Translations under genes and position numbers: made by a program | Notes under the pieces: model-generated | What the model saw: only the letters and a program-made list of their open reading frames with translations | What the model was told of the DNA's origin: nothing | The model's database searches: none | Shown: positions 11,732 to 54,593 of the stretch, in pieces | Layout: each line of letters opens with the position of its first letter | Numbering within the stretch: position 1 is the first letter of the stretch | Assembly: GCA_030390025.1 (NCBI GenBank) | Contig: CM059432.1 | Location: forward strand, 49,664,001 to 49,728,000 | Source: Squalus acanthias | Lineage: Eukaryota | Length of the DNA stretch: 64,000 bases | Direction: 5' to 3'

Positions 11732-11843
11732 AACTACTGTATAAAATGATTACTTTTTGAAAGTATTCAAATTCTGCAGTGAATCTCCTTACATTATGCT
11801 CTCTTTGGTTTCTAACTCACTTTTAATTTTTCTTAAATGTGTT

Positions 11844-16539: not shown

Positions 16540-16775
16540 ACCAAGAAAGTTCCACTCCCCCATCAACCTATCCTCATTGACCAACATTGGCTCCTGATCC
16601 CTCAGTGCCTCAAATTTAAAATTCTTTTCCCTGTGTTTAAAACCTTACAAGCCTCGTCCTTCCTCTCTCTGTAAACTCCTCCAGCCATAAAAGCTCCTCG
16701 CTCCCCCACCACACCCCCCTCCCCCTCCGCACCCCTGAATTCTTCATTCCTCTGAATCTGGCTTCTTGAGCATCC
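16540..16775 (+). mobile_element. L2 LINE C-terminal fragment
   Basis: Degenerate translation PILIDQHWLLIPQCLKFKILFPVFK resembles the L2 ORF2 motif P.L..LHWLP...RI.FKIL. Confidence 0.6.
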
Positions 16776-17456
16776 CTAATTGCCCTTGAGAAGGTGGTGG
16801 TGAGCCGCCTTCTTGAACCGCTGCAGTCCGTGTGGTGATGGTACTCCCACAGTGCTGTTCGGGAGGGAGTTCCAGGATTTTGACCCAGCGACGATGAAGG
16901 ATCGGCAATATATTTCCAAGTCAGGATGGTGTGTGACTTGGAGGGGAACTTGGAGGTTGTGGTGTTCCCATGCGCCTGCTGCCCTTGTCCTTCTAGGGGG
17001 TAGAGGTCGCAGGTTTGGGAGCTACTGTCAAAGAAGCCTTGGCGAGGTACTGCAGTGCATCTTGTAGATGGTACACACTGCAGCCACGGTACGCCGGTGG
17101 TGGAGGCAGTGAATGTTTAAGGTGGTGGATGGGGTGCCAATCAAGCGGGCTGCTTTGTCCTGGATGGTGTCGAGCTTCTTGAGTGTTGTTGGAGCTGCAC
17201 TCATCCAGGCAAGTGGAGACTATTCCATCACACTCCTGACTTGTGCCTTGTAGATGGTGGAAAGGCTTTGGGGAGTCAGGAGGTGAGTCACTCGCTGCAG
17301 AATACCCAGCCTCTGACCTGCCCTTGTTGCCACACTATTTATGTGGCTGGTCCAGTTAGGTTTCTGGTCAATGGTGACCCCCAGGATGTTGATGGTGGGG
17401 GATTCGGCGATGGTAATGCCATTGAATGTCAAAGGGTGGTGGTTAGACACTCTCTT

Positions 17457-17880
17457 TTTTTAATTTATTCGTTCATGGGATGTGGGCATCGCTGGCAAGG
17501 CCAGCATTTATTGCCCATCCCTAATTGCCCTTGAGAAGGTGGTGGAGAGCCGCCTTCTTGAACCGCTGCAGTCCTTGTGGTGAAGGTACTCCCAAAGTGC
17601 TGACTTTGTCGTAGCGGTTGTGTACAACTGAATGGCTTGCTAGGCCATTTCAGAAGGCAGTTAAGAGCCAACCACATTGCTGTGGGTCTGGATATAGGAA
17701 GATTTCCTTCCCTAAAGGACATTAGTGAACCAGTTGGGTTTTTCCGACAATCCGGTAGTTTCATGGTCACCATTACTGATACTAGCTTTTTAATTCTAAA
17801 TTTATTTAATTAACTGAATTTAAATTCCCTCAGCTGCCGTGATGGGAATTGAACTCACATCTCTGGATTATTAGTCCAGG
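17457..17880 (-). mobile_element. SINE derived from the tRNA-headed LINE (5'-truncated)
   Basis: Head and body are homologous to 30960-31230, fused to the LINE 3' tail with an A-rich end. TSD tctctt at 17451 and 17881. Confidence 0.88.
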
Positions 17881-18207
17881 TCTCTTGTTGGAGATGGTCA
17901 TTGCCTGTCACTTGTGTGGCGCAAATGTTACTTGCCACTTATCAGCCCAAGCCTGAATGTCGTCCAGGCATTTCTGCATGCCGGCATGGAATGCTTCATT
18001 ATCTGAGGAGCTGCAAATGGAACTGAACACTGTGCAATCATCAGTGAAAATCCCGACTTCTGACCTTAGGATGGAGGGAAGGTCATTGATGAAGCAGCTG
18101 AAGATGGTTGGGCCTAGAACACTGCCCTGAGGAACTCCTGCAGCAATGTCCTAGTGCTGAGATGATTGGCCTCCAACAACCACAACCATCTTCCTTTGTG
18201 CTAGGTA

Positions 18208-19092
18208 TAAGAACATAAGAAATAGGAGCAGGAGTAAGCCATTAGGTCCTTCGAGCCTGCTCCGCCATTCAATAAGATCATGGCTGATCTTCTTACTCAT
18301 CTCCACTTTCCTGCACTATCCCCATATCCCTTGATTCCCTTAATATTCAAAAATCTATCGATTCCTGTCTTGAATATACTCAACGACTGAGCCTCCACAG
18401 CTCTCTGGGGTAGAGAATTCCAAAGATTCACCACCCTCTGAGTGAAGAAATTTCTCCTCATCTCAGTCCTAAATGGCCGACCCCTTATTCTGAGACTGTG
18501 ACCCTGGTTCTAGACTCCCCAGCCAGAGGAAACATCCTCCCTGCATCTACCCTGTCAAGCCCTGTAAACATTTTGTATGTTTCAATGAGATCACCTCTCA
18601 TTCTTCTAAACTCTAGAGAATATAGGCCTAGTCTACTCAATCTGACCTCAAAGGACAAAGCCCCCATCCCAGGAAGCAGTCTGGTGAACCTTCGTTGGAC
18701 TCCCTCTGTGGCAAGTATATCCTTCCTTAGGTAAGGAGACCAAAACTGTACACAATACTCCAGGTGTGGTCTCACCAGGGCCCGCTATAATTGCAGTAAG
18801 ATGTCTTTACTCTTATACTCAAATCCTCTTGTAATAAAGGCCAACATACCATTTGCTTTCCTAATTGCTTGCTGTACCTGCATGTTAACTTGCAGTGATT
18901 TGTGTACAAGGACACCCAGGTCCTTCTGAACACCAACATTTCCCAATCTCTCACCATTTAAAAAATACTCTGCTTTTCTATTTATCCTACCAAAGTGGAT
19001 AACTTCACATTTCTCCACATTATATTCCATTTGCCATGTTCTTGCCCACTCACTTAGCCTGTCTGTATCCCCTTGAAGCCTCCTTGCATCCT
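18208..19092 (-). mobile_element. CR1 3' fragment inserted in the tRNA-headed LINE
   Basis: MEYNVEKCEVIHFG...[13 protein letters not shown], with the tail aagaacataagaaatagg at 18209. Confidence 0.93.
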
Positions 19093-22000
19093 AACTCTAG
19101 CCAGTGAAGAGTTTTCCCCCGATTCCCATTGACTTCAATTTTGCGGGGGCTCCTTGATCTCACACTCGGTCAAATGCGGCCTTGATGTCAAGAGCAGTCA
19201 CTCTCACCTCACCTCTGGAATTCAGCTCCTTTGTCCATGTTTGGACCAAGGCTGTAATGAGGTCTGGAGCCGAGTGGTCCTGGCGGAACCCAAAATGAGC
19301 ATAAGTGAACAGGTTATTGGTGATTAAATGCCGCTTGATGGCACTGTCGACGACAGCTTCCATCACTTTGCTGATGATTGAGAGTAGACTGATGGGGCGG
19401 TAATTGGCCGGATTGGATTTGTCCTGCTTTTTGTGAACAGGACATACCTGGGCAGTTTTCCACATTGTCGGATAGATGCCAGTGTTGTAGCTGTACTGGA
19501 ACAGCTTGGCTAGAGGTGTGGCTAGTTCTGGAGCACAAATCTTCAGCACGACAGTCAGGATGTTGTCGGGGCCCATAGCCTTTGACGTATCCAGCACACA
19601 CAGCCATTTCTTGATATCACCCGGAATGTATTGATTTGGCTGAAGACTGGCTTCTGTGCTGGTGGGGACCGCAGGAGGAGGCTGAGATGGATCATCCACT
19701 CGGCACTTCTGGCTGAAGATGGTTGCGAACGCTTCAGCCTTGGCTTTTGTTTGCACTCACGTGCTGGGCTCCGCTGTCATTGAGGATGGAGATGGTCATG
19801 GAGCCTCCTCCTCCTGTTAGTTGTTTAACTGTCCACCACCATTCATGGCTGGATGTGGCAGGACTGCAGAGCTTAGATCTGATCCGTTGTTTGTGGGATC
19901 ACTTAGCTCTGTCAATAGCATGCTGTTTCCGCTGTTTAGCATGTATGTAGTCCTGTGTTGTAGCTTCACCAGGTTGGCACTTCATTTTTAGGTACGCCAG
20001 GTGCTGCTGCCGACATGCTCTTTGATACTCCTCATTGAACCAGGGTTGGTCCCCTGGCTTGATGGTAATGGTAGAATGACAGATATGCCGGGCCATGAGG
20101 TTACAGATTGTGGTGGAATACAATTCTGCTGCTGCTGATGTCCCACAGCGCCTCATGGATGCACAGTTTTGAACTGCTAGATCTGTTCTGATTTGTTCCC
20201 ATTTAGCACGGTGGTAGTGCCACACAACACAATGGACTTCGTCTCCACTAGGACTGTGTGGTGGTCACTCCTACCAATACTATTGTGGACAGTTGTATCT
20301 GCGCCAGGTGGATTGGTGAGAATGAGCTCAAGTAGGCTTTTCCCTCATGTTGGTTCTCTCACCACCTGTCGCAGGCCCAGTCTGCCAGCTATGTCCTTCA
20401 GGACTCAGCCAGCTCGGTCAGTCGTGGTGCTAGTGAGTCACTCTTGGTGATGGACATTGAAGTCCCCCACCCAGAGTGCATTCTGTGCCCTTGCTACTCT
20501 CAGTGCTGCTTCCAAGTGGTGTTCAACATGGAGGAGTACTGTTTGATAGTTGAGGGATGGCGGTAGGTGGTAATCAGCAGGAGGTTTCCTTGTCCATGTT
20601 TGACCTGATGCTATGAGACTTCATGGGGTCCGGAGTCAATGTTGAGGACTCCCGGGGCCACTGTATACCACTGTGCCACCACCCCTGGTGGGTTTGTCCT
20701 GCCAGTGGGACAGGACATACCCAGGGATGGTGATGGAGGAGTCTGGGATGTTGGCTGAAAGATATGATTCTTACAGGCTGTTGCATGACTAGTCTGTGGG
20801 ACAGCTCTCCCAATTTTGGCACAAGTCCCCGAATGTTAGTGAGGAGGACTTTGCAGGGTCGACTGGGATGGGTGTGCCTTTGTCGTGTCGGTGCCTAGTT
20901 CGATGATGGGTGGTTCATCCGGTTTTTTTTTGTATACTTCTTTGTAGCAGTTTGGTACAACTGAGTGGCTTGCTAGACCATTTCAGAGAACAGTGCTGTG
21001 GGTCTGGATTCACTTATAGGCCAGACCAGGTAAGGACAGCAGATTTCCTTCCCTAATGTCTCTGGATCATTAGCTCAGGCCTCTAAATTACTAGTCCAGT
21101 AACATAATCACTATGCTACTGTACCCACATACAACTAATGACACTATAGAAGTATAAAATATAAAATGGAAAATGGTGAATATAAACTAAGTACTGCAAC
21201 CAACTGGTTAATTTAAAGGAGCAGTATGCTTTTTAAAATCATCAGCATGTATTGTATTCTCTCCTTCTACCTTCCTCAGCTTGAACCCCTCCATCACGAG
21301 CCCACCATATATGTCACAATTTTATGGCAGCCTGTGAAATGGGGTCAAGATGTAAGTGGACAGAAACATCTGCCTGTTATCAGCTCAACCTCCTCACACA
21401 TAAAATGTCAGCCTTGGAGAAATGAGAGGAAAATATTTCCTCATAATCTAGGCTAACACATCAATCTGAAGGAGTACTACATTTTTAGACCAGTTTTAGG
21501 TCCTGTGTGAGTGGTTCAGGTGGACACCCAACGGCAGTATTCAATGTATGCCCCTGAGGTCCTCCAGGGTCCACTGAGCCAAAGAAATAGATGTTTCCAG
21601 CTCTGAAGGGAGCCATGTTTCCTCTTCAGAAAGATCATTTATCCCCTCTGGGATAGATTAACTTTCCCTACTAAAGATTTGAGGTCTTTCAAAAGACCTC
21701 AGTAGAACTCACGACTGCTGTGATCTTTTTGAGGCACACTGGGCAGAATTCCCAGGGTAGCCAGAGAAAAAAAACCCTACCCTCCCCAAACACAAGTTCA
21801 AAGCTATGAGGATTCAGGGCTAAACTTGAGAATGGATACAAAATCAGCGATAAGGTAAAAACAAACATTGGATACTAGTTATAGGAGTATGGTCAGGGTG
21901 GGTACTGAATGAGATGCCCCAGGGCTCAGTGATGGGACCATTATTGTTTCCAGTTTACATTCATGACTTCAATTTAGACACTCAATGCAAATTGGTCAAA

Positions 22001-22499
22001 TTTGCAGACTGTACCAAACCACAAGGGGCAGTGGTAATGAAGGAAGAAGGCTGAGAATTAGAGAACGACTCAAATAAGTTATGTGGCAGATGAAACTTAA
22101 TGCAGACAAGTGTAAAGTACTGAACATGGGAAGAAAAAATACTCCATGAATGGTGCTGAAATAGCTACGAATGAGGTTGAAAAAGACCTTGGAGTCTTAG
22201 TAAGCACTATGTCCAACCAATGCAGAGCAGCAATAAACAAAGCCAATAAAATGTTAATCTTCATAGTCAAAACAGTAGAGTGCAATGAAATTAAACTGTA
22301 CAGTGCTCTCTCAGACCATAGCTTGAGTACTGTGTCCAGTTCTGATCACCAAGGAACAAGGGAGACATTCAAGTGTTGTAAGCAGTGCAGAGAAGAGCCA
22401 CCAGGTTGATCGCTGGTCTCAGGGGTCTCAGCTATGAGGAAAAACTCAAGAGACTTGAGCTTTTCATTCTGGAAAGGAGACATCTGAAAGGTGATCTTG

Positions 22500-23050
22500 C
22501 AGATTAAACGACTTGACTATTTCCACTTGCACTGTCTACGACATATCGCTGGCTTCAAGTGGCAGAACAGGGTGCATAACACTGAGGCCCTCAAGTGCTG
22601 CAGTGCAACTGGAAAGGAGGCTATGAATAAAAAGGTCCAGCTGCGTTGGTCTGGACACGTCATTCTCATGCCCAATTGTAGAAGTCCCCAAGTCGTTTTC
22701 TAAGGCGATCTTCAATCAAAACAGCGGTGGGCAGATGCAATGTTATAAAGGCACGCTAACGGCCACCTTGAAAACTTGCAATATTAACCCCAACACCTGG
22801 GAAGACACAGCCACCAACAGACCACAATTGCAGACTGTCTACTGGGTTGGTTTGAATGAATTTGAGGCTGCAAGGTTGCACAATCTGGCATCCAAGTGCC
22901 TGGCACACAAGGCTACTCATCTATTCGCTTCATCCGGCTTTCAATACAATATTTGTAGCCATATATGTGCATCCAGGATCAGGCTCTTTCCCCATCAGCG
23001 CACTGGAACACCTGAGATTCATCCATCGATTCGACAGGAGACTCCATCAT
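22500..23050 (+). mobile_element. RTE-clade LINE 3' fragment
   Basis: FHLHCLRHI..KWQNRV.NTE.L, QLRWSGHV..MP and a degenerate C-terminal C..RI.L..H.R finger. Confidence 0.85.
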
Positions 23051-23237
23051 TATAGAGGTATACAAGACAGTAAGTAGTATGGAAAAAGTTAAGCTGAATA
23101 CTACTTTAAATTAAATGGGACTAGAAAAAGCGGACACAGGCGCAAAGTGGTAAATAATAATTTTAGGACTGATATCGGGAACTTCTTCATGCTAAGAGCA
23201 CTTGGAACTGACTTTCAGACAGAGTGGTAGAGGCAAA

Positions 23238-23895
23238 AGACATACTTGCTCTCGAGTCAGTACAAAGAAGGTTCACTCGGTTAATCCCGGGGATGAGGGG
23301 ATGGATATATGAGAAGAGGTTGGGTAGATTGGGACTCTACTCATTGGAGTTCAGAAGAATGAGAGGCGATCTTATTGAAACATATAAGATTGTGAAGGGG
23401 TTGGATCGGGTGGATGTGGGGAGGATGTTCCCGATGATGGGTGAAACTAGAACTAGGGGGCATAGTCTTAGAATAAGGGGCTGCTCTTTCAAAACTGAGA
23501 TGAGAAGGAACTACTTCACTCAGAGGGTGGTAGGTCCATGGAATATGCTGCCCCAAAAAGCTGTAGAAGCTACATCATTACATAAATTTAAAACAGAAAT
23601 AGACAGTTTCCTAGAAGTAAAGGGAATTAAGGGTTACGGGGAGTGGGCAGGAATTTGGACATGAGTCTAGGTTCGGATCGGTCATGGCCCTGTGGGTAGC
23701 GTAGCGGGCCCAGGGGCCGTGTAGCCTGATCCTGCTCCTATTTCGTGTGTCCAATTCTGTTAGGTTCAGGAGATGGTTCTGTGATAGTAGATTGGCGGTT
23801 AGGATCAGATCAGCCATGATCTTATTGAATGGCGGAGCAGGCTCGAGGGGCCAATTGGCCTACTCCTGCTCCTATTTCTTATGTTCTTATGTTCT
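23238..23895 (+). mobile_element. Young CR1 3' fragment, same subfamily as 1617-4560
   Basis: Nearly identical to the reverse complement of 1617-2270. caaaa occurs on both flanks. Confidence 0.95.
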
Positions 23896-24309
23896 CAAAA
23901 ACCCTGGAATCATTTTACAAATATTAGATACAGCAGTGTAGAGTCATTTTGAATGGATGAATTATGATGGCCTGAATGTCTTTTCTCATCTGACGTATTT
24001 TGTGATCTTATGACATGCTCCCTTAACATGGTAAGGGTAGGCAAAAGATCGGCTCAGGGATTCCCCCTGCTGGAAAATGGCCACATACAAAATACGGTGT
24101 GGTCAATTTCTGGCTGCCACCGGCCGACCTGTCACTCTCTGTCATTGGTCTGGGCTGGAATTTTGGCCCCACAGGTGCCTTTAAATGGAAAGTTTCAACT
24201 CCCACTGTTAACGTACTTCTCATTGTCCACAAATTCCACCTCAAAATATTGTTTTAAAAATTAAACCAAATATATTTAAAAATCTGTTCCCAATGAACCT
24301 TTTCATATT

Positions 24310-24880
24310 TACATAGAGTTTACAGCACAGAAACAGGCCATTTGGTCCAACTGGTCTATGCTGGCGCATATGCTCCACACGAGCCTCCTCCCACCCCTCT
24401 TCATCTAACCCTATCAGCATATCCTTCTATTCCTTTCTTCCTCATGTGCTTATCTAGCTTTCCCTTAAATGCATCTATGCTATTCACCTTAACTACTCCT
24501 TGTGGTAGTGAGTTCCACATTCTAACCACACTCTGGGTAAAGAAGTTTCTCCTGAATTCCCTATTGGATTTATTAGTGACTATCTTATATTTATAGTCCC
24601 TAGTTTTGGTTTCCCTCACAAGTGGAAACGTTTTTTCTATGACTGCCCTATGAAACGCCTTCATAATTTTAAAGACCTCTATTAGGTCACCCCTCAGTCT
24701 TCTGTTTGCGAGTGAAAAGAGCCCCAGCCTATTCTGCCTTCCTGATAAGTATAATCTCTCAATTCTGGTATCGTCCTTGTAAATCTTTATTGCACCTTCT
24801 CCAGTGCCCTTGTATCATTTTTATAATATGGAGACCAGAACTGTGCACAGTACTCTGTGTGTTCTAACCAAGATCCTGTA
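24310..24880 (-). mobile_element. CR1 3' fragment
   Basis: RRNFFTQSVVRMWNSLP...FKGKLD followed by a CR1-like 3' end. Confidence 0.88.
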
Positions 24881-26020
24881 CAAGCTTATACTAACCACTC
24901 TTATTTTAGTTATTGCTGTGCAGTTTTCTTTAATAATTTGATGAATCATGCATTTTTACAGAGTAAGCATCTGTACAAGGGCTTTCTTCATAAAATGCTT
25001 AGAAAAACAAAGTGGCATTTTGGTGATGCTATTGCAGTCTTACATTGGATTTCATTGACAGGTCTAGGACACAGTATATGTGCCAATGCAGCTAAAATAC
25101 TTTAAAAAAATCTATATAATAGAGTACAATCGCTGATACATTTAATTTCATATTACTGATCTGAAAACCCCCCTGAAATTTAAGCTTAAAATTATAAATG
25201 TGATATTTTAGCCCCAGAGGTAAAACTGAACAAACACAACCAAACTCCTCCATGATGGGATAGTGACTTGGCTATTTTTTTGTAACAATACACAAGAATC
25301 AATAAATGATTTGTTTTAGAGTTAAATATTTGATGTATTTATAGAATTGAATCTTTTTTCAAACTGATTACATTCCAATTACAACCTCATTGACTGTTTT
25401 GTTCACCAATGTTCAGTTTACAGATCATTTCAGGAGCTCCAGAGTAAACACTCAATACCAACTGCAAGGACTGAGAATTGAAATGTTAATGCATTTTCAA
25501 ATGGCTTCCCTGCATATATAACACCACTTAAAGAAGAAAAATTACTTTGAGCCATAAGCCAGTCCCAGGTTAACCAAGAACACCCTGGAGTCATTGCAGA
25601 GTCATTGTTTATTCACTGTTAACACAAATAAATTTTGATTCAGCCCACAGGACAGGAGCCAAAAAAAAACCTTGCCTAAAATAACATAAAAAATGAGAGG
25701 CTCTGTACTGGTTTGGAATACTTAAGTACTGTTTGTGTTTGTTCAGAGTATAAGCTGCTCCTGTGCTAATTAAATGCCAATGCCTAAGTTTGAGTACGCT
25801 GTTTAATCACAGCATAGAAGCTGTTGAAATTCTAGATAGGTGTTTATCTATATAATGCTATATGAAATGGGAAAATAACTTGCTTTCAAATATTTTTAAA
25901 ATGTTAATACATTTAAGTACTTTATTTCCTGTATTTTCAAAAAAAAAGGGCCTGTTAATCTGCATTGATTTAACATCCAGCTGACATCTAGCAAGATGAT
26001 GCACAGTTTGCATTTTCCCA

Positions 26021-26039
26021 GCATCCGCAGTATTTTGCT
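26021..26039 (+). mobile_element. Penelope tail-only micro-insertion
   Basis: gcatccgcagtattttgct is identical to the pLTR tail at 29295-29313 and is flanked by a 14-bp direct repeat tttgcattttccca. Confidence 0.75.
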
Positions 26040-26445
26040 TTTGCATTTTCCCACGTGGGTTTATCAAATTGGTAAAATCTTAATGGCAGTCAGTCAACAG
26101 CAGTAATTAGACCAAGTTACTGGGGAGGAAAGAGTGGATGGGGGAGAAATTGGCTAACCCTTGAAAATGGGTGTGAGGATCGCAGTATGCGATTAACCCG
26201 CAACAGCGCATTGCATTACAGGCAGCACGTTAAATTCATGCTGTCTGCTGCTTTACATGATGGCTGCGTGCAGCCAGCGTTACAAGCGCTGTTGATTGGC
26301 TGCATGCATCAGCAGCAGGTCCGATATCCCGAGTGGCTAGCGCTACTTAAAGGAAGCCTGCACCCCTTAAAGGGGAGGTGCATTGTGGCTGCAAGGAGTG
26401 GTGAGAGTATTTTGAAAACTGAATCTGTGCTGTGATACTTTGAGC

Positions 26446-26684
26446 AATGGCTGAACATGCGAGGGAGCGAGCACCAAGGTTTTCAGACACTAAACTGGAG
26501 GTCTTGGTGGAAGAAGTGGAACGAAGGAGAGTCGCCTGTTTCTGCAGGGGGTAGGAGGCCCTCCAGACAGATGCTCAGGAGGCAGTGGGAAGAAGTAGCA
26601 GCGGAAGTCAATGCCAGGAGTGTTGCTCCAAGAAAATGGATGCAGTGCAGGAAGAAGTTTAACAATGTCACACGAGTTATCAAG
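26446..26684 (+). pseudogene. Harbinger Myb/SANT-like DNA-binding exon
   Basis: MAEHARERAPRFSDTKLEVLVEEV, then a frameshift, then WEEVAAEVNA...WMQCRKKFNN and the donor AAG|GTGAGT. Confidence 0.85.
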
Positions 26685-26858
26685 GTGAGTGAGTTCACCC
26701 TCAAATGGCATATCCTACCAACTGCACCACCAGCCTCATTCGCTGCTCAATTCACTACACTCCCATCACCCATCTACCAACAATCTCTATGAATCAGTAC
26801 TCAATCCTACAATTCATACACTTTACCTCACCCTCACACACTTAGCACTGTTGCAAGC

Positions 26859-28387
26859 TGTAAGATTATCATGGATTAGTTGATTTTTAGAATACTTGCT
26901 TTACTATCTTATAATCATCAGTATCTTATAATCATCAGTAATGGATTTATAATCGTGTGTAAGAATTAAATGTAAAACTCTGTAATCATTAATTGTATGC
27001 AATGATAACCTGAATTATATATGACATGTAACCCTTTTGCTTATAATTAAAATCTGTGAGTAAGCTGTAACCAGGCAGCCTGGGGTGAGAAAGAGGATTG
27101 CTATGGTTGAATAGGGAGGCTGTGTAAGCAAGTTGAATATTAGCCAACAGTAAGGATGAGACAATGGGCTGGATTTTGCCAGCCCCGAGGAGGCGGGTAT
27201 GGAGGCGGGACTGCTGGTAAAGTTGCAGAAAGTGGGGGCGGCTGGCAAACCCGCCCCCAACCCGCCTCCGTGCCCTTTTGCCAGGAGGCGGGAAGCTGTC
27301 CTGACCCGGGTCCCGTCTCCTCGAGGCGGGAAAGGGATTAAATCCTTTTAACTGCCTGTTAACAGGTAGTTAACAAGTAGAAAAAAGGATTAGTCCCATT
27401 TTACCTTTTCAAGTGCAGGCTTCCCGAACTCAGAGAACCCTGCCGGGGTGGAAGAGATGAGTAGGAGGTCTGCGGGGGTCAGAGGGGTCTGAAAGTGAGA
27501 TGTAGAGGTGCGTGATGGGTGCAAGTGTGGAGTGGTAAGTATGTGAGGTGAGTGTAAAGTGTTAGAAATTGTTCACTTACCTTTGTTTCTGCCTACAGCC
27601 TTCAGCCGCTCTGGATCCGGAGTCCCGACATCTTCATTGTAGATTTCACAGACTGGCTGTGAACCAACAGTCATCTGATTTCTACGAAGTAGAAAGGTTT
27701 GATGAGTCCTGAACACAAGTGCTCATGAAACGACACAGAATGTCAGTGTTTGACAGCTTCACAGAGCTGTCAAACGCTGACATTTCTTCTTTCAAGAAAT
27801 CTTGACAGATGGCACGTCAGACGTTGACGTGCTCTGTCACTGACTTCCCCCTAATTGGCCTTGCTGAGCCCACTGGACGGGCTTAACAAGGTCAATCAGG
27901 GGAAAATCCCGCTGGTTGGCCAGAAGATGATGGAGGCGGGACTGAGACCCAGCAAGCAGCAGTCCCACCTCCAACACATCTCCATTCAGAAAATCCAGCC
28001 CATAGAGTGCAGCTAGCCTGGGAAGCAAGATCAGGTGTAGCTGCCACTGTGTTGGAATGTTATGATGTCTGCAGTGAATTAAAAACATAGGCCTTCACAG
28101 AAACAGTGAACAGCAAGGACACCATCTCTACACTATGGAGACATGTACCTTTTGTGTTGCCATAACTACCCCAGATATGAGTCTTGATTGTCAAAAACAG
28201 ATGATGTAAGGGTGTCATAAGACTAGAACCTGTGCAAGCCAAGGTGCTGCAGATGTGCCATCTTTATGATTGGATTTTGGGTTTGGGGTGTAAGCTAGTG
28301 ATTGGTTCAAGAGGACTCTGTAGGTTTTGAATGAGAGTAAGGGTATAGGAAGGGGGTCTTAACAGCCAAAAAGTGTAAAAGATTTCA
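26859..28387 (+). mobile_element. Possible LTR fragment interrupted by the multi-hairpin element
   Basis: Starts abruptly with TGTAAG inside the Harbinger intron and is AT-rich, U3-like. No 3' terminus seen. Confidence 0.3.
27166..28001. mobile_element. Non-autonomous Harbinger-type element, multi-hairpin family (copy 2)
   Basis: Same TIRs and internal sequence as 9346-10191. Confidence 0.9.
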
Positions 28388-28776
28388 TGGGGTGCCAATC
28401 ACTGCTTTGTCCTGGATGGTGTCGAGCTCCTTGAGTGTTGTTGGAGCTGCACTCACCAGGCAAGTGGAGAGTATTCCATCACACTCCTGACTTGTGCTTT
28501 GTAGATGGTGGAAAGGCTTTGGGGAGTCAGGAGGTGAGACACTCGCCAAAGAACAGGCAGCCTCTGACTTGTTTTGTAGCCACAGTATTTATTAGGCTGG
28601 TTCAGTTAAGTTTCTGGTCAATTGTGACACCCAGGATGTTGATGGTGGGGGATTCAGTGATGGTAATGTCATTGAATGTCAAGGGGAGATCGCTAGACTT
28701 TATCTTGTTGGAAATAACAACAGAAAACGCTGGAAAAACTCAGCAGGCCAGGCAGCATCCGTGGAGAGAGAAAGAG

Positions 28777-28813
28777 AGTTAACGTTTCAGGTCGATGACC
28801 TTTCGTCAGAACT
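28777..28813 (-). ncRNA. Minimal type I hammerhead ribozyme
   Basis: Reverse complement reads AGTT-CTGACGA-A-AGGTC atc GACCT-GAA-ACGT-T-AACT. Confidence 0.8.
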
Positions 28814-29182
28814 GTGAAGAGCCGGAAATCAAATAGATTTAAGGCCAGAGTAAAGCTGGGAAAAGGGGGAGGGGATAAAAGAACAAAGGGGGAGATGAAG
28901 AGACATTAAGAGACATTAAGAGATATGCAAGGCTAGAGGTGGTGTTAATGTGACAGATTAAGGCTGAAAGAAGTGTGAAATCCACTGGCAGAATGAAGGA
29001 CAGCTGCCAGCTTCTAGGACGAAAAAAAAGGTGGGGGGGCAAATAAAAGGATGGAAAAAATAAAATATAAATGTGATTGGAGCTAAGGTTATGATCTGAA
29101 ATTGTTGAACTCGATATTGAGTCCAGAGGGCTGTAGCGTGCTTTACTCTGGCCTTAAATCTATTTGATTTCCGGCTCTTCAC

Positions 29183-29219
29183 AGTTCTGACGAAAGGTCA
29201 TCGACCTGAAACGTTAACT
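29183..29219 (+). ncRNA. Minimal type I hammerhead ribozyme
   Basis: AGTT-CTGACGA-A-AGGTC atc GACCT-GAA-ACGT-T-AACT, with a palindromic stem III. Confidence 0.8.
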
Positions 29220-32200
29220 CTCTTTCTCTCTCCACGGATGCTGCCTGGCCTGCTGAGTTTTTCCAGCGTTTTCTGTTGTTATTTCAGATTTCCAGCATCC
29301 GCAGTATTTTGCTATCGTATTTATCTTGTTGGAGATGGCCATTACCTGACACTTGTGTAGCGCAAATGTTATTTGCCACTTATCAGCCCAAGTCTGAATG
29401 TCATCCAGGTCTTGCTGCAGGCGGGCATGGACTCCTTCATTATCTAAGGAGTTGTGAATGGAACTGAACACTGTGCAATCATCAGCGAACATCCCCACTT
29501 CTGACCTTATGTTGGAGGGAAGGTCATTGATGAAGCAGCTGAAGCTGGATGGGACTAGGACACTGCCCTGAGGAACTCTTGCAGTGATGACCTGGGGCTG
29601 AGATGCTTGACCTCCACCAACCACAACCATTTCCGTTGTGCGAGGTATGACTCCAGCCAGTGGAGAGATTTCCCCCTGATTCCCATTGACTTCAGTTTTA
29701 CTTGGGCTCCTTGATGCCACACTTGGTCAAATGCTGCCTTGATGTCAAGGGCGGTCACTCTCACCTCACCTCTGGAATTCAGCTCTTTTGTCCATGTTTT
29801 GATCAACGCTGTAATGAGGTCTGGAGCTGAGTAGTCCTGGCGGAACCCAAACTGAGCGTCGGTGAGCAGGTTATTGGTGCGCAAGTGCCGCTTGATAGCA
29901 CTGTCGACGACATCTTCCATCACTTTTTTGATGATTGAGAGTAGGCTGCTGGGGCAGTAATTGGCCAGATTGGATTTGTCCTGCGTTTGGTGAACAGGAC
30001 ATACCTGAGCAATTTTCCACATTGTCAGTTAGATGCCAGTGTTGTAGCTGTACTGGAACAGCTTGGCTAGAAGCGCTGCTAGTTCTGGAGCACAAGTCTT
30101 CAGCATGATAGCCGGGTTGTTGTCGGGGTCCATAGCCTTTGCTGCATCAGCCGTTTCTTGATATCACGTGGAATGAATCGATTTGACTGAAGACTGGCTT
30201 CTGTGATGTTGGGGACCTCAGGAGGAGGCCGAGATGGATCATCCACTCTGCACTTCTGGCTGAAGATAGTTGCAAATGCTTCAGCCTTGTCTTTTGCACT
30301 CATGTGCTGGGCTTCGCCATCGAGGATGGGGATGTTCATGGACCCTCCTCCACCTGTTAGTTGTTTAATTGTTCACCACAATTCACAACTGGATGTGGCA
30401 GGACTTCCATCGTGTTAGTTCTCTCACCACCTGCCGCAGGCCTAGTCTGGCAGCTATGTCTTTCAAGACTCGGCCAGCTCGGTCAGTAGTGGTGCTACTG
30501 AGCCACTCTTGTTGATGGACATTGAAGTCCTCCACCCAGAGTACATTCTGTGCCTTGCTACCCTCAGTGCTTCTTCCAAATGGTGTTCAACTGAGGGAGG
30601 GTAGTAGGTTTCAGCAAGAGGTTACCTTGCCCATGTTTGACGTAAAGCCGTGAGACTTCATGGGATCCGGAGTCAATGTTGAGAACTCCAACGGCCACTC
30701 CCTCCTGTCTGTATACCACTGTGCTGCCACATCTGCCTGCGGGACAGGACATACCCAGGGATGGTAATGGAGTAGTCTGGGACATTGGCTGAAAGGTAAG
30801 ATTCTGTGAGTATGACAATGTCAGGCTGTTGCTTAACTAGTCTGAGAGACAGCTCTCCCAATTTTGCCACAATACCCCATATTTTAGTGAGGAGGACATT
30901 GCAGGGTCGAGTGGGCTGGGTATGCTTTTGTCGTGTCCGGTTTTATTCTTAGTATTCTTCTTTGTAACGGTTTGGTACAACTGAGTGGCTTGCCAGGCCA
31001 TTTCAGAGGGCAGTTAAGAGTCAACCGCATTGTTGTGGGTCTGGAGCCACATATAAAGCCAGACCAATTAAGGATGGCAGATTAGTGAACAAGATAGGTT
31101 TTTACGACAATCATGGTCACCATTACTGATACTAGCTTTTTATTCCAGATTTATTTAATTCACTGAATTTAAATTCCCCAGCTTCCGTGGTGGAATTTGA
31201 ATTCACGTATCCATATCATTAGTCCAGGCCTCTGGATGACAAGTCCAGTAACATAACCACTATGCTACCATACCCTTTTTTGGAGGCTAAGTTAGAGGCA
31301 GAATCTGCATGTGGTGAGATACCGGGCACAAGTGTGCAGGAGCCAGGGCAGGGGGAAAGGATAGCGCATGTGGCATCTCGCTGCAGGGTGAGGTCGCACA
31401 CTAGTTTTGCTGCAGAAGAGTCAGATGAGGACCTCGATGGGCCAGGCTACAGAAGAAGGCTGATGGGTGTACATAACCAAATGCTTGGTGCACTGGAAAG
31501 CCTGCCAGAAAGCCTATGCTCAATGTCAAGGAGCATGGCTAAGTCCAGAAGCAACTTTGCACAGGGCTTTGTGCAGAGCTTGGAGCCCATCCTTTCTAAC
31601 CTCCATCAGCACACTGATGGAACCCACCATGATGCAGCATCTGATGGCCGATGTTACAGCTTCCATTGCAGCACAGGCAGCTTCCATCAAATGTCTGAGT
31701 GCTGTAGTGGAAGCTCAGACTGCTGCCTTGCAAGCTCAGACTGCTGCCAATCATGCCTCTGGATACCACTGTTCAAAGGGGCTTCTAGGGCATCATAGCA
31801 GTCCATCAATCTGTTCTCCAACAGATCAATAGGATTGCTGAAGCACCACCCCAGGAGAGTGGCAGTGGCTCCATGGAGCATGAACCTGCTGTCCTCTCTC
31901 AGGATGGCAGCATTCCTGTTCTCACCGCTGCCATTCTGCCAGTGCCCTTGCTGTTGCTTGTCAGCCAGCCAGCCCAGACTGCTGCAGCCCAGACTGAAAT
32001 GGTGCAGTCTGAAGCCGGGTCTTCTAGGCCCAGAGGTTCTCAAGGTCAGCCTCCAAGACCATCTGCAATCTCCTCAATTGGAAGTCAGCAACCTTCCACC
32101 ACCCATGCTGCAGCACCTCATAGGAGCACTAGGAGAGGCAAAGGCATACAGAAGACAGGCACTAAGGGAAAGTTTATTTTTGTATGATTATGCCATGATT

Positions 32201-32980
32201 GAATTGATAAAATTGGATTGGAATGTGCATTTTCTGGTGGTTTTTATTTTTTTATTGGAAAGAAGACAATGTGATGGTCAGTGATAGAGCAAAGGTAGGA
32301 GCATGAGACTGTTGGTGAATGTGGAGGTGTGGTTGAGGTTAATGGTATCGCTCACTAATTATTTTATCATGTAGAGCCCGGGCAGAAAGTGGCTGGCTAT
32401 GGTGTAACCTCCCTTCCTCTTTCTGTTGTTCCACTTCCTGTTGCATTTCCTCCTCCTCCACTTCCTCCTCCTCCTCCTCATGCTCCTACTCCTCAGCTTC
32501 TCGCCTGATAAGTGGTGACAAGAACTGTTCTGTCATAATGGCCAGGTTGTGCAGCATGCAGCACACTACCACAAATCTTGATACCCACTCAGCTTTTGTA
32601 AGCTTTTTATTTCGACTGGCATTAAATTGACAGCAAGACCAATTCTTTTGAAACAATTTGGAATAAGTTTATTAAACACACACACTCATGCACATCAAAA
32701 CAATAGCCTACTGGTATCCTAATGACTCTACTCGATTACAACAGGTAAGGTAATGGGTTAGATTTAAACAGACACGTACTTCCCTGAGTCAAGCAATGCA
32801 CTCAGCCTTTTTCCTTGCTTCTTGGTCTGGTCTGTAGTGGGAGGGTTTCTTGTTTTCCTTGTTTTTCTGCATGGTTATCCAGAGAGAGAGCGAGAGCCTT
32901 TGGGTTCCTTATTTTATTTTATTTTAAATCCATTGTCTCTAGTCTAAATTGCTAAAACCCCAGGATTGGGTCTTAGTTTC

Positions 32981-33061
32981 ATGATGTGGAGATGCCGGTG
33001 TTGGACTGGGGTGGACAAATGTGAGAAGTCGCACAACACCAGGTTATAGTCCAACAGTTTT
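32981..33061 (-). mobile_element. Penelope pLTR fragment (family B)
   Basis: Matches 54044-54124 and the reverse complement of 46796-46875. Confidence 0.85.
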
Positions 33062-33153
33062 CCAGCGTTTTCTGTTGTTATTTCGGATTTCCAGCATCTG
33101 CAGTATTTTGCTATCGTATTAGTGTTTGGTCCACTGCCACCTCTCTTCTAGGA

Positions 33154-35901
33154 ATGCCTACCTTGAAGAAGTTCTGCTCTTCTCTTCGACGGGACCTCCG
33201 TTTGTCTCTTCAACCTTGTTCATCTTCACTACTTTTAGTTTCCCTTCTCGTGTTTGATCAGGTATCTGCCAAGACTCGGTTTCACAGCCACATTACTTTC
33301 CTCAGCAACTGTCTCCGGTTCCGTCTTATTCCACGTGGATTCCAACTCAACTTCCACCCTTCATGTTTCGGATCCACCCAGGATTACAAATATCTCCAAG
33401 ATATTCATCGTTCCTCGAACTACTGCTCTCGCCGCATCTTGAGATCCACGCTCAATGCCATGCGGCGCCACATGAACACTCTCGACCGCTCTCTTCAGCA
33501 GCACCGACGCACTCTATCTCAAAGCTGTCCGGGTCCACAGTTCCATTTCATCCTTCGACTCATCCGACGCTTCAACAAAAAACTTTTTTTCTTCCTTTCT
33601 GATGTCAAGGATCGCAAGCTTCATCAACACTTGAACACCAACGCCCCTCCGGAACCTTCTTCCCCTTCACTTTCCTCTGACCCCCCTTCTCTCAATCTCA
33701 CCCCCTGCCGCGTTTTCACTATCCCTTCTGACCTTCCCCTTTCTGACCCCGAACGATCAGTCCTCAGCAAAGGCCTGAGCTTCATCCCCTTACGCCCCCA
33801 CCTCAATGAATTTCGAGCTCGGCACGATGCTGAGCTCTTTTTCCGCCGCCTCCGTCTCCGTGCCCACTTCTCTGGCCAGGAGTCATCCCCCCATACGGCT
33901 GACCCTTTCTCCCGCTTTCAGAATTCCCGTTCTACCTGGACCCCTCCCTCTGGCCTCTTACCCTCTCTAGATCTTTTCATTGCCAACTGCCGGCGTGACA
34001 TCGGCCGTCTCAATTTCTCTGCTCCCCTCTCTCACTTCAACCTACCTCCCTCTGAACTTGCAGCACTCTATTCTCTCAGATCCAACCCCGACATTGTCAT
34101 TAAACCTGCTGACAAGGGTGGTGCTGTTGTTGTTTGGTGTACCGACCTCTACCTAGCGGAAGCTGAACGCCAACTCTCCGACACCTCCTCCTACCTCCAC
34201 CTGGACCATGACCCCACTACCGAACATCAAACCACCATTTCCAAGACCGTCACTGACCTCATCTCCTCTGGAGATCTTCCCCCACGGCCGCCAACCTCAT
34301 AGTTCCCCAACCCCGCACAGCCCGCTTCTACCTCCTTCCCAAGATCCACAAACAGGACTGCCCCGGTAGACCCATCGTTTCAGCCTGTTCTTGCCCCACG
34401 GAACTTATCTCTTCCTATCTCGACTCTTTTTTCTCCCCTTGTCCAGTCTCTTCCCACCTACATCCGCGACTCTTCCGACGCCCTCCGCCATTTTAACAGT
34501 TTCCAGTTTCCCGGCCCCAACCGCCTCCTCTTCACTATGGACGTACAATCCCTCTACACCTCCATTCCCCACCAGGATGGCCTGAGGGCACTCCGCTTCT
34601 TCCTTGAACAGAGGCCCAACCAGTCCCCATCCATCACCACCCTCCTCCGCCTGGCTGAACTTGTTCTCACATTGAACAACTTCTCCTTTGACTCCACCCA
34701 TTTCCTCCAAATTAAAGGTGTTGCTATGGGTACCCGCATGGGTCCTAGCTATGCCTGCCTTTTCGTGGGATATGTGGAACACTCTTTGTTCCAGTCTTAC
34801 TCGGGTCCCCTCCCTCACCTCTTTTTCCGGTACATTGATGACTGTATCGGTGCTGTTTCCTGCTCTCACCCTGAACTAGAACATTTCATTCAATATGCTT
34901 CCAATTTCCACCCTTCCCTCACCTTCACATGGTCCATCTCCGACTCTTCCCTTCCCTTCCTCGACTTCTCCGTCTCCATCTCTGGGGATAGGTTATTGAC
35001 TAACATTCACTACAAGCCCACTGACTCCCACAGCTACCTGGACTACACTTCCTCCCACCCCGCCTCCTGTAAGGACTCTATTCCATTCTCCCAGTTTCTC
35101 TGTCTCCGCCGCATCTGCTCTGATGATGCCACCTTCCATACCAGTGCTTCCGACATGTCTTCCTTTTTCCTCAACCGAGGATTCCCCTCTACCTTGGTCG
35201 ACACGGCCCTCGACCGTGTCCGTTCTATCTCCTGCACTTCTGCCCTCACCCCTGCCCCTCCCTCCCGGAACCACGATAGAGTTCCCCTTGTCCTCACCTT
35301 TCACCCCACCAGCCTCCACATTCAACGGATCATCCTCCGCCATTTCCGCCACCTCCAGCGTGATCCCACCACCAAACGCATCTTCCCCTCACCTCCCCTT
35401 TCAGCATTCCGCAGGGACCGCTCCCTCCGCGACACCCTAGTCCACTCCTCTACCACCCCCAGCACCCCTTCCCCTTCACCCGGCACCTTCCCGTGCAAGC
35501 GCAGGTGATGCAACACATGCCCTTATACCTCCCCTCTTCCCACTGTCCAGGGCCCCAAACACCCCTTCCAGGTGAAACAGCGATTTACTTGTACTTCCTG
35601 CAATTTATTATACTGTATTCGCTGCTCACGATGTGGTCTCCTCTACATTGGGGAGACCAAACGCAGATTGGGTGACCGCTTTGCGGAACACCTCCGTTCA
35701 GTCCGTAAGGGGGACCCCGAGCTCCCGGTCGCCTGTCACTTTAATTCACCGCTTCACTCCCACTCTGACCTCACCGTCCTCGGCCTATTACACTGTTCCA
35801 CGGAAGCGCAGCGTAAGCTCGAGGAACAGCACCTCATCTTTCGTTTATACACGCTACAGCCCTCTGGACTCAATATCAAGTTCAACAATTTTAGATCATA
35901 A
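33154..35901 (+). pseudogene. Penelope reverse transcriptase-GIY-YIG endonuclease ORF (2 frameshifts, 1 stop)
   Basis: [36 protein letters not shown] (34831-34842) and LLYCIRC..CGLLYIGETKR...RFAEH. Frameshifts at ~34285 and ~34430, TGA at 35506. Confidence 0.95.
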
Positions 35902-36179
35902 CCTTAGCCCCAATCACATTTATATTTTATTTTTTCATCCACCCTTTTATTTGCCCCCCCCCCCTTTTTTTCCCTCCTAGAAGCTGGCAGCTGTCCTTCA
36001 TTCTGCCAGTGCATTTCACACTTCTTTCAGCCTTAACCTGTCACATTAACACCACCTCTTGCCTTGAATATCTCTTAATGTCTCTTAATGTCTCTTAATC
36101 TCTCCTTTTGTTCTTTCATCCCCATCCCTTTACCCAGCTTTATCCTTGCCTTAAATCTCTTTGATTTCCTGCTGTTTCC

Positions 36180-36215
36180 AGTTCTGATGAAAGGTCTCGA
36201 CCTGAAACGTTAACT
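36180..36215 (+). ncRNA. Minimal type I hammerhead ribozyme in the Penelope pLTR
   Basis: AGTT-CTGATGA-A-AGGTC tc GACCT-GAA-ACGT-T-AACT. Confidence 0.82.
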
Positions 36216-36618
36216 CTGTTTCTCTCTCCACGGATGCTGCCTCGCCTGCTGAGTTTTTCCAGCGTTTTCTGTTGTTATTTCGGATTTCCAGCATCTGCAG
36301 TATTTTGCTATCGTATAGTCCAACAGTTTTTGATTGACTTTCCTTTGAACATGTGTCTGTCTGCAGTGGCTGGTGCCAGCTCTTGATTAAGTTAATTGTT
36401 TGTTAACACCTTTTAGTGGCTCTTGAGTTTCGATGGTGAGTTTCGATGGTGAGTCTCTGTGGGGGGTTATCCTGTTATGCAGGTTTCCTTTGTTAAGTTT
36501 CACACCATTGCCTTGAGCAGGTAGATCCATACACATAAAATTCATCTTTCTTACATACATCTTATATTAATAGTCTCGAGTCCATCACACATACAAAACA
36601 TATATTTTTATTCCTACA

Positions 36619-43499: not shown

Positions 43500-46400
43500 G
43501 TCTGGAATCCGGCTCCAACGTGCCGACTTCCAGGGTAACTCGGGCGTGTTCGCCTGCGTGCATGTAACCCCCTCCGCAGAGTCGGGTTAGCGATTTGAAT
43601 ATTTAAATCACTGAATTGCAACAATATTTCAACCGGCATTTAACTTTAACAGAGCATGCATGGGTTTCCCGGGCTTCCTGAAACTCGCCATTAAAGCCGA
43701 GACGAGAAGAGAACGGCAATTCATGGGGCTCATTAAAAGTCAGGCACATACTGCAATAAATACTCAGTGCTCACAGTTGCTTTCTTACCTCACACTGGGA
43801 AAGGGTTTGTTGAGAGTACACTTTGGAGGGATTGAGACTCAGATCAGGATGGGTGGCGCCGTGGCTGCCTTAGATTGGACCTTGGACGAGGAGCAATATG
43901 ACCATCAGCAGCAGCAGCAGCCTGCTGTAGAGACCTACAGCTGGTCAGCAGAGAGGGGATCAGCCGCAGAGGAACTACCCATTTATCAGGGTGTTGCTTG
44001 ACCTCTCGGAAAAGCAGTGCTTCCGGAGACTCAGGTTGTCGCACCAGGTGGTGACAGGCATTTAAAAAAAATTAATTCATGGGATGTGAGCATCGCTGGC
44101 AATTATTGCCAATCCCTAATTGCCCTTGAGAACGTGGTGGTGAACCGCCACCCTCCCCACCTTCTTGAACCACTGCAGTCTATGATACTTCTTTGTAGCG
44201 GTTTGGTACAACTGAGTAGCTTGTTGGGCCATTTCAGAGGGCAGTTAAGAGTCAACCACAGTGCTGTGGGTCTGGAGTCACATATAGGCCAGACCAGGTA
44301 AGGACAGCAGATTTCCTGAGTGAACCAGATGGGTTTTTACAACAATCCAGTAGTTGCACATTCACCATTACTGATACTAGCTTTTTAATTCCAGATTTAA
44401 TTTGCTGAATTTAAATTCCCCAGCTGTTAGTGGTGAGATTTGAACTTCACATCTCAGGATCATTAGTCCAGACCTCTGGATTATTAGTCCAGTAACATAA
44501 CCACTAGGCTACCGTAACGGTACTGCAGCTTCCTAGAAGAAGACCTGCTCCCTGCTGGATCTGGTGGTCATGTATTACCAATGGCTATGAAAGTGACCAC
44601 CACCCTCAACTTTTTTGCCTCCAGATCCTTCCAGGGCACATAACATTTTCTCATACCATGTACATACCCTTGTGCAACTAAAATCTTTAATCTTCCTTTT
44701 AATAGCGCTCCTACGTAGTGTAACCCCAATGGCTTCAGCAGAGGTAGAGGCAGGCTGCTCAGATCCAAGCTCTGACTGTTGAGATACTCTTGGCCGAGAT
44801 CCTCTGGGTTTTAGAGTCCCTGAGGGCCCCGTCAAAGAGTGCTCCACCTGCACCTGTGCAGGGGCCGTCGGGAGAGGAAGCAACATGTCAGGTACTGGCT
44901 GAGGGAGCGGGCGGGCAACAGGTGAGAAGTGGAAGTGCTTTGAGCGGAGTTCACACTTCCATGCCCCCTTTCGCCATCATCCCACTCATGGGCCAGCCAC
45001 CCTTCACTCCTATCACTCTGCTGGAGAGCAGCTTGGTGCAGATCAGTATCGCTGTCATCCTAATTAAGGTGCCAGGAATGTTGGCAGCCAGAGCCTGCAC
45101 AGCTGTGGTCAAGGCCTGCATGGCCGCCTTTGATTGCCGCGATTGATGTTCCAGGTGTTGGCCATTCTATCCATGGACGAAGACATTGTCACAATGCCCT
45201 GCGACATCAACCCACTCACGCTTGAGCTGGACTCCTCCATTCTCTCTGCAATCATAGACAGTGTGCGTGGAAGGCCTGTCAGTACGTCGCAGATTTTCTG
45301 CTGCCCCTCAATGATTATCCTTTTCATCGACGGCCCCCAGCGTCATTTGTGTCCACCTGAGCAGAGCTTGGAGAGGGATGCGTCTTCTGATGCGAACTCT
45401 CCACAGCTGTCCCTGCCACCACTGTCTGCTCTTGCTCACTTGTGAAGTGTGAGTCACCAGATGACAACCCAACTATCTGTCTAACTGGACCCATCTGAGC
45501 TAGTGCATGTTAAGCATGACTGAGTGCCGTATGATGTGTGGGTTGCTGATATTTAATTCCGTCACCAGGTAGCTGGGAGGTCCCAATCTCCCCATCTCTG
45601 ATGGTCAGCGATGCCGAAATGCCGCTGATCTCCAGCGCTTCCTCCTCTGCAGTTGTCAACTGGGAAATCTGTGGAGGACCACCTCCGGTTCGCTCCCTCT
45701 TCCTAGTGTTCTGTGCTCTCTTCTCCTGCAACGGGGGGAGAACAGACCTCTGAGTGAATGTAATGGCATGTTTTCACCCAATGGATGCAGTGCATTTGGT
45801 GAGGGTGACTATCAGTGAGAGACAACAAATTGCATGAGGATCAGGGTGAGTGACAGTGTGGATGGATAGATGTGAATGTGGGGAAGTGCATAGAAAGAGA
45901 ATGATGGGGGCGCTTGCAAGTTAATTGGGTGTGAGGAGTGATGTGATGGAGTAGGCTTGACAAGGCAGAGTGAGGAGGGGATGATGTACACAACAGGGTG
46001 TAGGTGAATGTGCAACTGTACTTGCCTTTCCTGACTTGGTTAGGTCACTAAAGCGATTTGTGCACTGAATCCAGGAGCGTGGCACAGTGCTCCTGCTGCT
46101 GACCTCTTCTGCCACCTCCAGCCAGACATTCATTGTAGCAGCAGCAGGTTTCTTCTCCTATTGCCAGGGAAGAGTATCTCTCTCCAACTCCTCACTGCAC
46201 CCAGCAGTGCATACAGTGATGCATCGTTAAATCAAGGCACAGCCCTTGACAATCCTGAATCCATGCTGAGACTTCACCCCTCTTGGTTCAAACTCATAAC
46301 TCCCCCAAATTCCATCTTTGAGTTGGCCCTTTAAATACTCCAGTTGAGATCGCATCATGCGGGTCCGCACCACACCCGCTGCCGCACATTCATTGCCAAA

Positions 46401-54317: not shown

Positions 54318-54593
54318 CATCAAAGACATAGCAAGATACAACTGAGACAATGAGGTGGGGTTACAGGGGGTCTAATGTGTCAAAAGCTGCAGTCGGTATG
54401 GAAAACGATAAACTTTAAAAAATTTTACTTATTTTTACTGGAAATCACATCTGAACAAGCCAAGATTTTCCAGTAAAAATAAGTAAAAATTTTTAAAGTT
54501 TATCGTTTTCCATACCGACTGCAGCTTTTGACACATTAGACCCCCTGTAACCCCACCTCATTGTCTCAGTTGTATCTTGCTATGTCTTTGATG
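54318..54593. repeat. Long near-perfect inverted repeat (fold-back insertion)
   Basis: Arms at 54318-54446 and 54464-54593 with one mismatch and one 1-nt indel, and a 17-nt spacer. Confidence 0.95.

Follow-up and report, generated by a model that had tools for sequence, protein, structure and literature searches.

The window analysed here, a stretch of 64,000 nucleotides (nt) from the 3.7-Gb genome of the dogfish Squalus acanthias, carries two minus-strand copies of a Zenon-type long interspersed element (LINE) that begins with a tRNA-derived head. Based on a comparison of these copies with their relatives, we suggest, at slightly better than even confidence, that the element is an autonomous LINE that RNA polymerase III (Pol III) would transcribe and that would be translated from a structure-set, non-AUG start on or beside a conserved GCU codon. 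In the usual division, LINEs are coding elements whose capped RNAs are made by RNA polymerase II (Pol II), and short interspersed elements (SINEs) are short, non-coding and made by Pol III.

The constancy of the 5' end was examined in 89 copies collected by similarity to the open reading frame (ORF) alone, namely 29 from a DNA query internal to the apurinic/apyrimidinic endonuclease (APE), 40 of the 150 scored APE-protein matches and 20 of 47 from a protein query of a sister lineage; the set includes one duplicated pair. The search with the first 100 APE residues had given 65,161 first-look candidates, 150 of which were scored. Sixty-five of the 89 copies reach into the head in register, 25 of them starting within nt 1-5 and 21 at nt 1, while another 17 break off within the N-terminal extension and another 7 within the APE, and no alternative common 5' region was seen by eye in the set. 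The constant linkage of head and ORF proposed in a preliminary description of the window therefore holds for the family. The family majority, built from 139 aligned segments, is 3312 nt long and comprises a tRNA-like head of ~86 nt, a leader of 250 nt, one ORF, a short tail and poly-A, which follows GAAT as A5-A8 in full-length copies. The single ORF encodes APE and reverse transcriptase (RT), in agreement with the earlier claim that ORF1 is missing; Pfam finds the endonuclease in it, and relatives carry the RT domain PF00078.

The same head-ORF junction occurs in the 65 copies and in five species, which bears out the earlier argument against a chance SINE insertion. The abundance of short head-plus-tail elements described below would fit repeated chance insertions, or a dead chimera that a different LINE amplified in trans, but this explanation is extremely unlikely and already largely refuted by the common junction, by purifying selection on the ORF and by the lack of any alternative 5' end among the copies. 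The expectation that head and ORF would lie together within target-site duplications was not borne out, since none adjoined the ends of 13 full-length copies (8 + 5); one 12-nt and one 18-nt match were offset. CR1-group elements often have no such duplications.

Some further features of the copies were observed. Truncated 5' ends accumulate at nt 341-355, where they were seen in 9 copies (3 of them apparently transposon insertions), and are missing at nt 278-340; after scan correction neither pattern was significant (P = 0.67 for 6, and 0.08), and both were rejected as signals. In four copies (L088, L107, L119 and L039), the extension or head is interrupted at a TAA, and the interrupting sequences end in GGCCC/GGGCC; we take them to be DNA-transposon ends, probably Harbinger-like. 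One copy recurs with an identical score about 20 times (contigs C29, C53, C1494, C3586 of G000, and others), which suggests segmental or tandem amplification.

Judged by its 5' end, the element is the elasmobranch Zenon family, as its first ~380 nt match SquAca_Zenon-1 by eye. Whether the family had been catalogued was left open in the preliminary description; it has been, and the published consensuses include the head (supplement of PMC13343379). Stuart et al. 2026 (PMC13343379) describe elasmobranch Zenon (SquAca_Zenon-1, CarCar, HypSab, RhiTyp, ScyCan) as an element of ~3.3 kb with APE and RT, a poly-A tail and no ORF1, so the lack of ORF1 was already known from the consensuses published in 2026. 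The main text of that paper contains no mention of tRNA, polymerase III, start codon or methionine and does not discuss the head, the promoter type or the missing AUG; the promoter type and start of the named family are thus apparently undescribed. When we compared the Zenon consensus rows over their first 400 nt, taking species from the row labels and excluding SquAca-2 and -3, which carry deletions, those of great white, whale shark, catshark, stingray and dogfish all began with the tRNA-like head by eye. The four non-dogfish consensuses also keep, by eye, the hairpin and the in-frame GCU described below; in whale shark, 11 nt separate the two. The codon after GCU is ACA or AAA, so that no near-cognate start is shared. 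In the first 400 nt of the hagfish and coelacanth rows no tRNA-like head was found.

In an RT tree, which contained no named Repbase reference, the element grouped with P0004, P0041/43 and the Zenon-like P0044/45/15 at 87/80, a moderate support, and away from the CR1 elements of the window; the by-eye identity with the SquAca_Zenon-1 5' end appears to be the stronger evidence. Fragments of the element lie in gene models of Heptranchias, Heterodontus, Pristiophorus and Rhincodon. ORF pieces were also seen in annotated shark gene models for aldo-keto reductase, CWC25, SVEP1, GPR139 and B4GALT1 (P0002, P0007, P0008, P0013 and P0024), where they may be annotation artefacts or exonisation. A marine sister lineage (~39-41% identical, on contigs of 2.8-4.3 kb) shares no Met with the shark element; P0069 begins MATKKN and P0066 has ATKNS where the shark has ATK. 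These starts were set by gene callers and could stem from truncated contigs or from alternative codons. An AUG-less start may be shared by this lineage. A search for its DNA gave five distant loci in a metagenome scan, seven distant ones in genome contigs, none or unrelated ones in viral contigs and unrelated ones in phages.

The head carries an A box, TAGCATAGTGG, at +9 and a B box, GAGTTCAAATC, at +72. Both are kept family-wide, the strict patterns being found in 26 and 21 of the 38 head-bearing copies, respectively, and all full copies begin 8 nt 5' of the A box, a tRNA-like spacing. When the head was aligned with host tRNAs for Ser, Leu and Asp, it scored 45 with tRNA-Ser(AGA), compared with a maximum of 35.5 in 1000 shuffles, 34.5 for Leu and 33.5 for Asp. 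ARAGORN called no tRNA in the head, and the Rfam tRNA model gave 22.7 bits, below threshold. A first guess that the head was that of SacSINE1, with its Deu domain, was dropped; we take SacSINE1 to be a different element. Head nt 28-65 (e.g. window 31248-31211) contain two similar hairpins; when the consensuses of other sharks are compared by eye, the stem pairs of the second are exchanged (CCCAG/CTGGG versus CTGGA/TCCAG), which suggests a maintained long variable arm. The host contig C889 of G000 (337854-866516) holds 47 listed tRNA-Ser(AGA) matches, many ~1.7 kb apart, with tRNA-Leu and tRNA-Asp alongside.

The T-run depletion that the preliminary description had named as a sign of Pol III transcription is present. 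The sense strand of the 3312-nt majority has no run of four or more T (T4) versus 15 runs of four or more A (A4), which fits the requirement of full-length Pol III transcription, and 20 near-intact copies (62.5 kb), which are not independent of each other, have 9 T4 and 271 A4 runs. In shuffling tests on the first-pass majority ORF, five runs of three or more T were observed versus 11.3 after synonymous shuffling (P = 0.003); no T4 run was observed versus 3.9 after base shuffling (P = 0.018) and versus 1.8 after synonymous shuffling, the latter not significant (P = 0.12). This last value counts in favour of another view, in which the head is a captured SINE whose sole role is that of a leader or of a promoter for Pol II, the mRNA is capped and made by Pol II or by host read-through, and the poverty in T is a codon or composition bias. 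Such a view also agrees with the description of LINEs as Pol II-transcribed and of Pol III as weakly processive in the published account (PMC10886601). We nevertheless consider it rather unlikely. The start of full copies at the tRNA distance from the A box and the depletion of T3 runs speak against it, as does the retention of T-runs elsewhere: five control ORFs from other retroelements of the window contain 2-10 T4 runs in 0.7-2.2 kb, with no significant depletion, and at least six were seen by eye in the lepidopteran Zenon-1_Hmel, an element that starts with an ATG and lacks the tRNA head. Moreover, ribosomes scanning a capped RNA would meet eight AUGs and still no in-frame start. From the head, its boxes and the T-run depletion, we infer that the RNA would be transcribed by Pol III from nt 1. 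In several organisms, both head and ORF are represented in contigs from runs tentatively taken as RNA; these contigs are uninformative on starts, strand and level.

In the majority, the ORF runs without a stop for 971 codons from the conserved GCU at nt 336, and no Met occurs in it before codon 285, which lies past the endonuclease, in line with the earlier observation that no in-frame AUG start is present. In intact copies the frame is open for 35 codons 5' of KVLLTN to the GCU; the closest stop on the 5' side of this codon is a TAA at a distance of three codons. Shared variants in the ORF comprise 106 synonymous, 105 nonsynonymous and 5 stop changes, and 23% of singletons are synonymous. The in-frame TAA is present in 69 of 103 copies, whose shared variants are 26 synonymous, 24 nonsynonymous and 0 stop (P = 4e-5). 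The ORF is under purifying selection, even in copies with the upstream TAA, a signal to which older polymorphism or recombination could contribute. In 62 of 64 copies, GCU and the next anchor are 12, 15 or 18 nt apart, all multiples of three. Selection downstream of the TAA and this spacing together bracket the start to about five codons around the GCU.

Eight AUGs lie in the 5' head region, six of them in the ORF frame, each followed by a stop in the majority. An in-frame AUG at nt 303, inside the hairpin, could start the protein on a Pol III RNA, either by read-through of a UAG or in a minority of stop-free master copies that mobilise the rest in trans. From this AUG, the ORF frame reaches GCU without a stop in 9 of 103 copies, and in the consensuses of three other species only one UAG-CAA lies in between by eye. 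We find such a start distinctly unlikely, since the TAA in 69 of 103 copies, mostly accompanied by a TAG, has not prevented selection on the ORF variants, the 11-nt spacer of the whale shark consensus, as published, puts the AUG out of frame, and internal ribosome entry would still be needed. Still less probable, indeed very unlikely, is a start at an out-of-frame AUG (nt 274 or 358) with programmed frameshifting, or reinitiation after an AUG-GCC-UAG mini-ORF. In the majority, no stop interrupts the +1 frame between nt 274 and the far side of the junction, and the published consensuses of four other species retain AUG358; however, it is present in only 32 of 64 copies and is AUA in 29, no shared slippery site was seen, and variants read in +1 are 3 synonymous and 15 nonsynonymous. 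By eye, the stingray +1 frame has a stop and the sign of the shift would differ in whale shark. In a first-pass majority, a 5-nt alignment artefact had put AUG358 in frame, and a CpG-decay stop was present; both were gone with 139 aligned segments.

Just 5' of the GCU, a hairpin is predicted whose loop is CUAGCAA in 47 of 75 copies and contains AGC in 67 of 75, and the spacer from hairpin to GCU is 12 nt in 67 of 70 copies. Two candidate pairings could place the ribosome here, one between the loop AGC (nt 310-312) and GCU, with 3-4 pairs, and one between GGUUG (nt 278-282) and (C/U/A)AACC, the five bases that directly precede GCU. In cricket paralysis virus (CrPV), the first codon read is GCU, for Ala.

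Based on these observations, we propose the following route. TFIIIC and Pol III would start at nt 1 and read through to T-runs in the flanking DNA, a step that we regard as likely. The RNA would be uncapped, its eight upstream AUGs would remain unscanned, and ribosomes would probably enter internally and begin within the five codons or so around the GCU. That entry proceeds as in the intergenic region (IGR) internal ribosome entry site (IRES) of dicistroviruses, through an anticodon-codon mimic (AGC:GCU or GGUUG:AACC) with Ala as the first residue, is a tentative suggestion. The protein would bind the 3' tail for target-primed reverse transcription, which is established for LINEs, and would also mobilise the head-plus-tail deletion derivatives. 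In its fullest form, this would be an autonomous vertebrate retrotransposon acting as a Pol III gene for a 970-residue protein, with a tRNA-Ser promoter, an uncapped 3.3-kb RNA, ribosome loading by an anticodon mimic and an Ala start without initiator Met, the first counterpart of the dicistrovirus IGR IRES in a cellular genome; this we regard as possible but doubtful.

Here, we need to weigh several points that stand against the proposed route, in addition to the T4 value and the copies open from AUG303 given above. Among the matches listed, no copy is fully intact, as every frame has at least one stop. Considered alone, the N-terminal extension shows no enrichment of synonymous variants (7 of 18 versus 37% expected), and its AAT repeat itself favours 3-nt slips. 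As for the leader, neither pairing shows covariation, nor does the 3' leader domain, AGC and GCU being invariant, and Rfam gave no IRES or ribozyme match at E<=1 or E<=5, so that the IRES-like step stays hypothetical. Position 331 is mismatched in 55 of 77 copies, the minimum-energy fold closes a plain helix over the GC of GCU, and the folding-stability z-scores (-0.8 to +0.5) are not significant. No PKII/PKIII ribosome-binding domain was identified in the leader folds. Israeli acute paralysis virus (IAPV) is described as needing four PKI pairs (PMC4132737), compared with the 3-4 of the AGC:GCU model; the PKI of dicistrovirus-type IGR IRESs comprises 4-5 pairs, and the two shark candidates together span 3-5. 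Finally, the published SquAca_Zenon-1 consensus has a 17-nt spacing that occurs in none of 64 copies.

Short head-plus-tail elements are common: of 11,425 candidates, 30 loci were examined, in which the head is followed by a few codons and then by a tail of ~115 nt. They are ~460 nt long, their tail is that of the Zenon element itself, and their junctions vary by a few tens of nt; in contigs of other organisms a similar head-tail join lies directly before the GCU. The tRNA-related 5' head with A and B boxes that marks SINE2 elements is found in both forms, whereas a non-coding length below ~700 nt is found in the ~460-nt derivative and not in the 3312-nt LINE. These deletion derivatives are tRNA-headed SINEs in all but origin.

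The copies in the window are laid out as follows.

16771..21126, minus strand: Zenon-type LINE copy 1, decayed, last ~60 nt missing, with two nested insertions (sequence comparison).
21054..21126, minus strand: copy 1 tRNA-Ser-like head, 5' part with A box at 21118-21108 (sequence).
20961..20986, minus strand: copy 1 hairpin with 7-nt anticodon-like loop CUAGCAA (predicted structure only).
20946..20948, minus strand: copy 1 conserved GCU, putative ORF start region, 12 nt past the hairpin (alignment).
16776..20948, minus strand: copy 1 remains of the single ORF, with basic extension, APE motif from 20852, RT and stop at 16778-16776 (sequence).
18209..19093, minus strand: 3' fragment of an unrelated CR1-type LINE nested in copy 1 (71-73% to other CR1-like copies of the window).
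17460..17885, minus strand: short derivative nested in copy 1, with 5'-truncated head, few codons and LINE 3' tail (sequence).
28387..31275, minus strand: Zenon-type LINE copy 2, with a 475-nt deletion at ~30405, 3'-truncated (sequence comparison).
31190..31275, minus strand: copy 2 tRNA-Ser-like head, with A box at 31267-31257 and degraded B box at 31204-31192 (sequence).
30966..31189, minus strand: copy 2 body of the 5' leader, ending in the hairpin (31006-30981), the 12-nt spacer and a mutated GCU (30968-30966) (sequence).
28710..29323, no strand assigned: Penelope-like insertion with inverted arms in copy 2 (92% to 35850-36316, beside RT ORFs 33025-35901).
44070..44516, minus strand: free-standing short derivative, with whole head, first 5 codons and ~110-nt LINE tail (sequence).

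Both copies are present as first described, with the common 5' end GGGTAYRGTAGCATAG; the nested CR1 fragment and short derivative of copy 1, and the 475-nt deletion, Penelope-like insertion and 3' truncation of copy 2, go beyond that description. The boxes reported from these copies hold for the family, although an internal deletion in copy 1 took the B box together with ~140 nt, and in copy 2 the B box is degraded. The argument that ~270-390 nt leave no room for an ORF1 reached the right result from a spacing that is not typical: the distance from head to APE motif is ~274 nt in copy 1 and ~375 nt in copy 2 because of private deletions, and it is 440 nt in intact copies. Likewise, the in-frame stop said to lie about 14 codons upstream of VLLTN exists in the APE frame of each copy (15-16 codons, no Met between), but at different places, as the result of copy-specific frameshifting deletions; it is decay and not a family trait.

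The nested short derivative (17885/17460) and the Penelope-like insertion (29323/28710) lie at the identical LINE position, after CCAACAAG in the RT region, which may be chance or a preferred target. A nearly intact Penelope-like element occupies window 33025-35901, with arms 92% similar at 28711-29285; we presume that it encodes an RT followed by a GIY-YIG-like C-terminus. From their translations, the ORFs at 54592-57121 and 57386-58075 are presumably a Harbinger-like transposase and a Myb/SANT-like protein, and what we take to be remains of a similar Myb partner lie near 31223-32284, 44575-45146 and 60801-61643. A G-rich minisatellite of ~2 kb with strong GC skew is found at 11800-13830.

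Compared with known systems, the shark element shares with the lepidopteran Zenon and Persaeus elements a single ORF, a length of 3.1-3.7 kb and a basic N-terminal extension, and the lepidopteran derivatives likewise consist of 5' leader, ORF start and 3' end, in the published account (PMC6740152). The 5' UTR (untranslated region) of Zenon kept in Persaeus is, in contrast, reported there without tRNA homology or a Pol III promoter, and both an ATG and several T4+ runs occur in Zenon-1_Hmel (PMC6740152). tRNA-derived SINEs (SINE2) have a tRNA head with A and B boxes and a LINE-type tail, exactly the layout of the short derivative, whereas the shark LINE carries a selected ORF of 2.9 kb; SINEs cannot encode a protein in the definition of Kojima 2018 (PMC5786205). 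SacSINE1, a shark tRNA-headed SINE, differs in the L2 tail and Deu domain reported for it (PMC5499810). R2 and L1Tc, as reviewed in PMC6765202, resemble the shark element in their single ORF, RNA that is processed or not made by Pol II, proposed cap-free translation and IRES-like leaders; they are Pol I co-transcripts or carry self-cleaving ribozymes, unlike the shark element with its internal tRNA-type promoter and no ribozyme match. As in the dicistrovirus IGR IRES (PMC4132737), the putative non-AUG start of the shark element would directly follow a candidate mimic of an anticodon-codon pair and a spacer rich in A, but the shark leader has no identified PKII/PKIII or SLIV/SLV, Rfam match or covariation, and the likeness is a resemblance only. 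An IGR-type IRES in LINEs was raised as possible, and as something that would force a rethink, in a review of 2013 (PMC3894237). No description of a tRNA-headed autonomous LINE or of an IGR-type IRES in a LINE was found in the literature searched, mostly titles and abstract openings, with Repbase, Dfam and subscription journals outside its scope.

If the proposal is true, a high-copy shark family would make a natural mRNA with Pol III, the boundary between SINE and LINE would be erased, and SINEs would arise by simple internal deletion. It makes testable how translation starts in LINEs without ORF1 and how tRNA-headed SINEs come to have matched heads and tails, here through a deletion within a LINE that carries the head. 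As an expression part, such a compact Pol III promoter combined with a cap-free start could also be of use. For sharks and rays, the finding would mean that an abundant coding element is likely copied by Pol III and likely translated without a cap, a route thought closed to LINEs.

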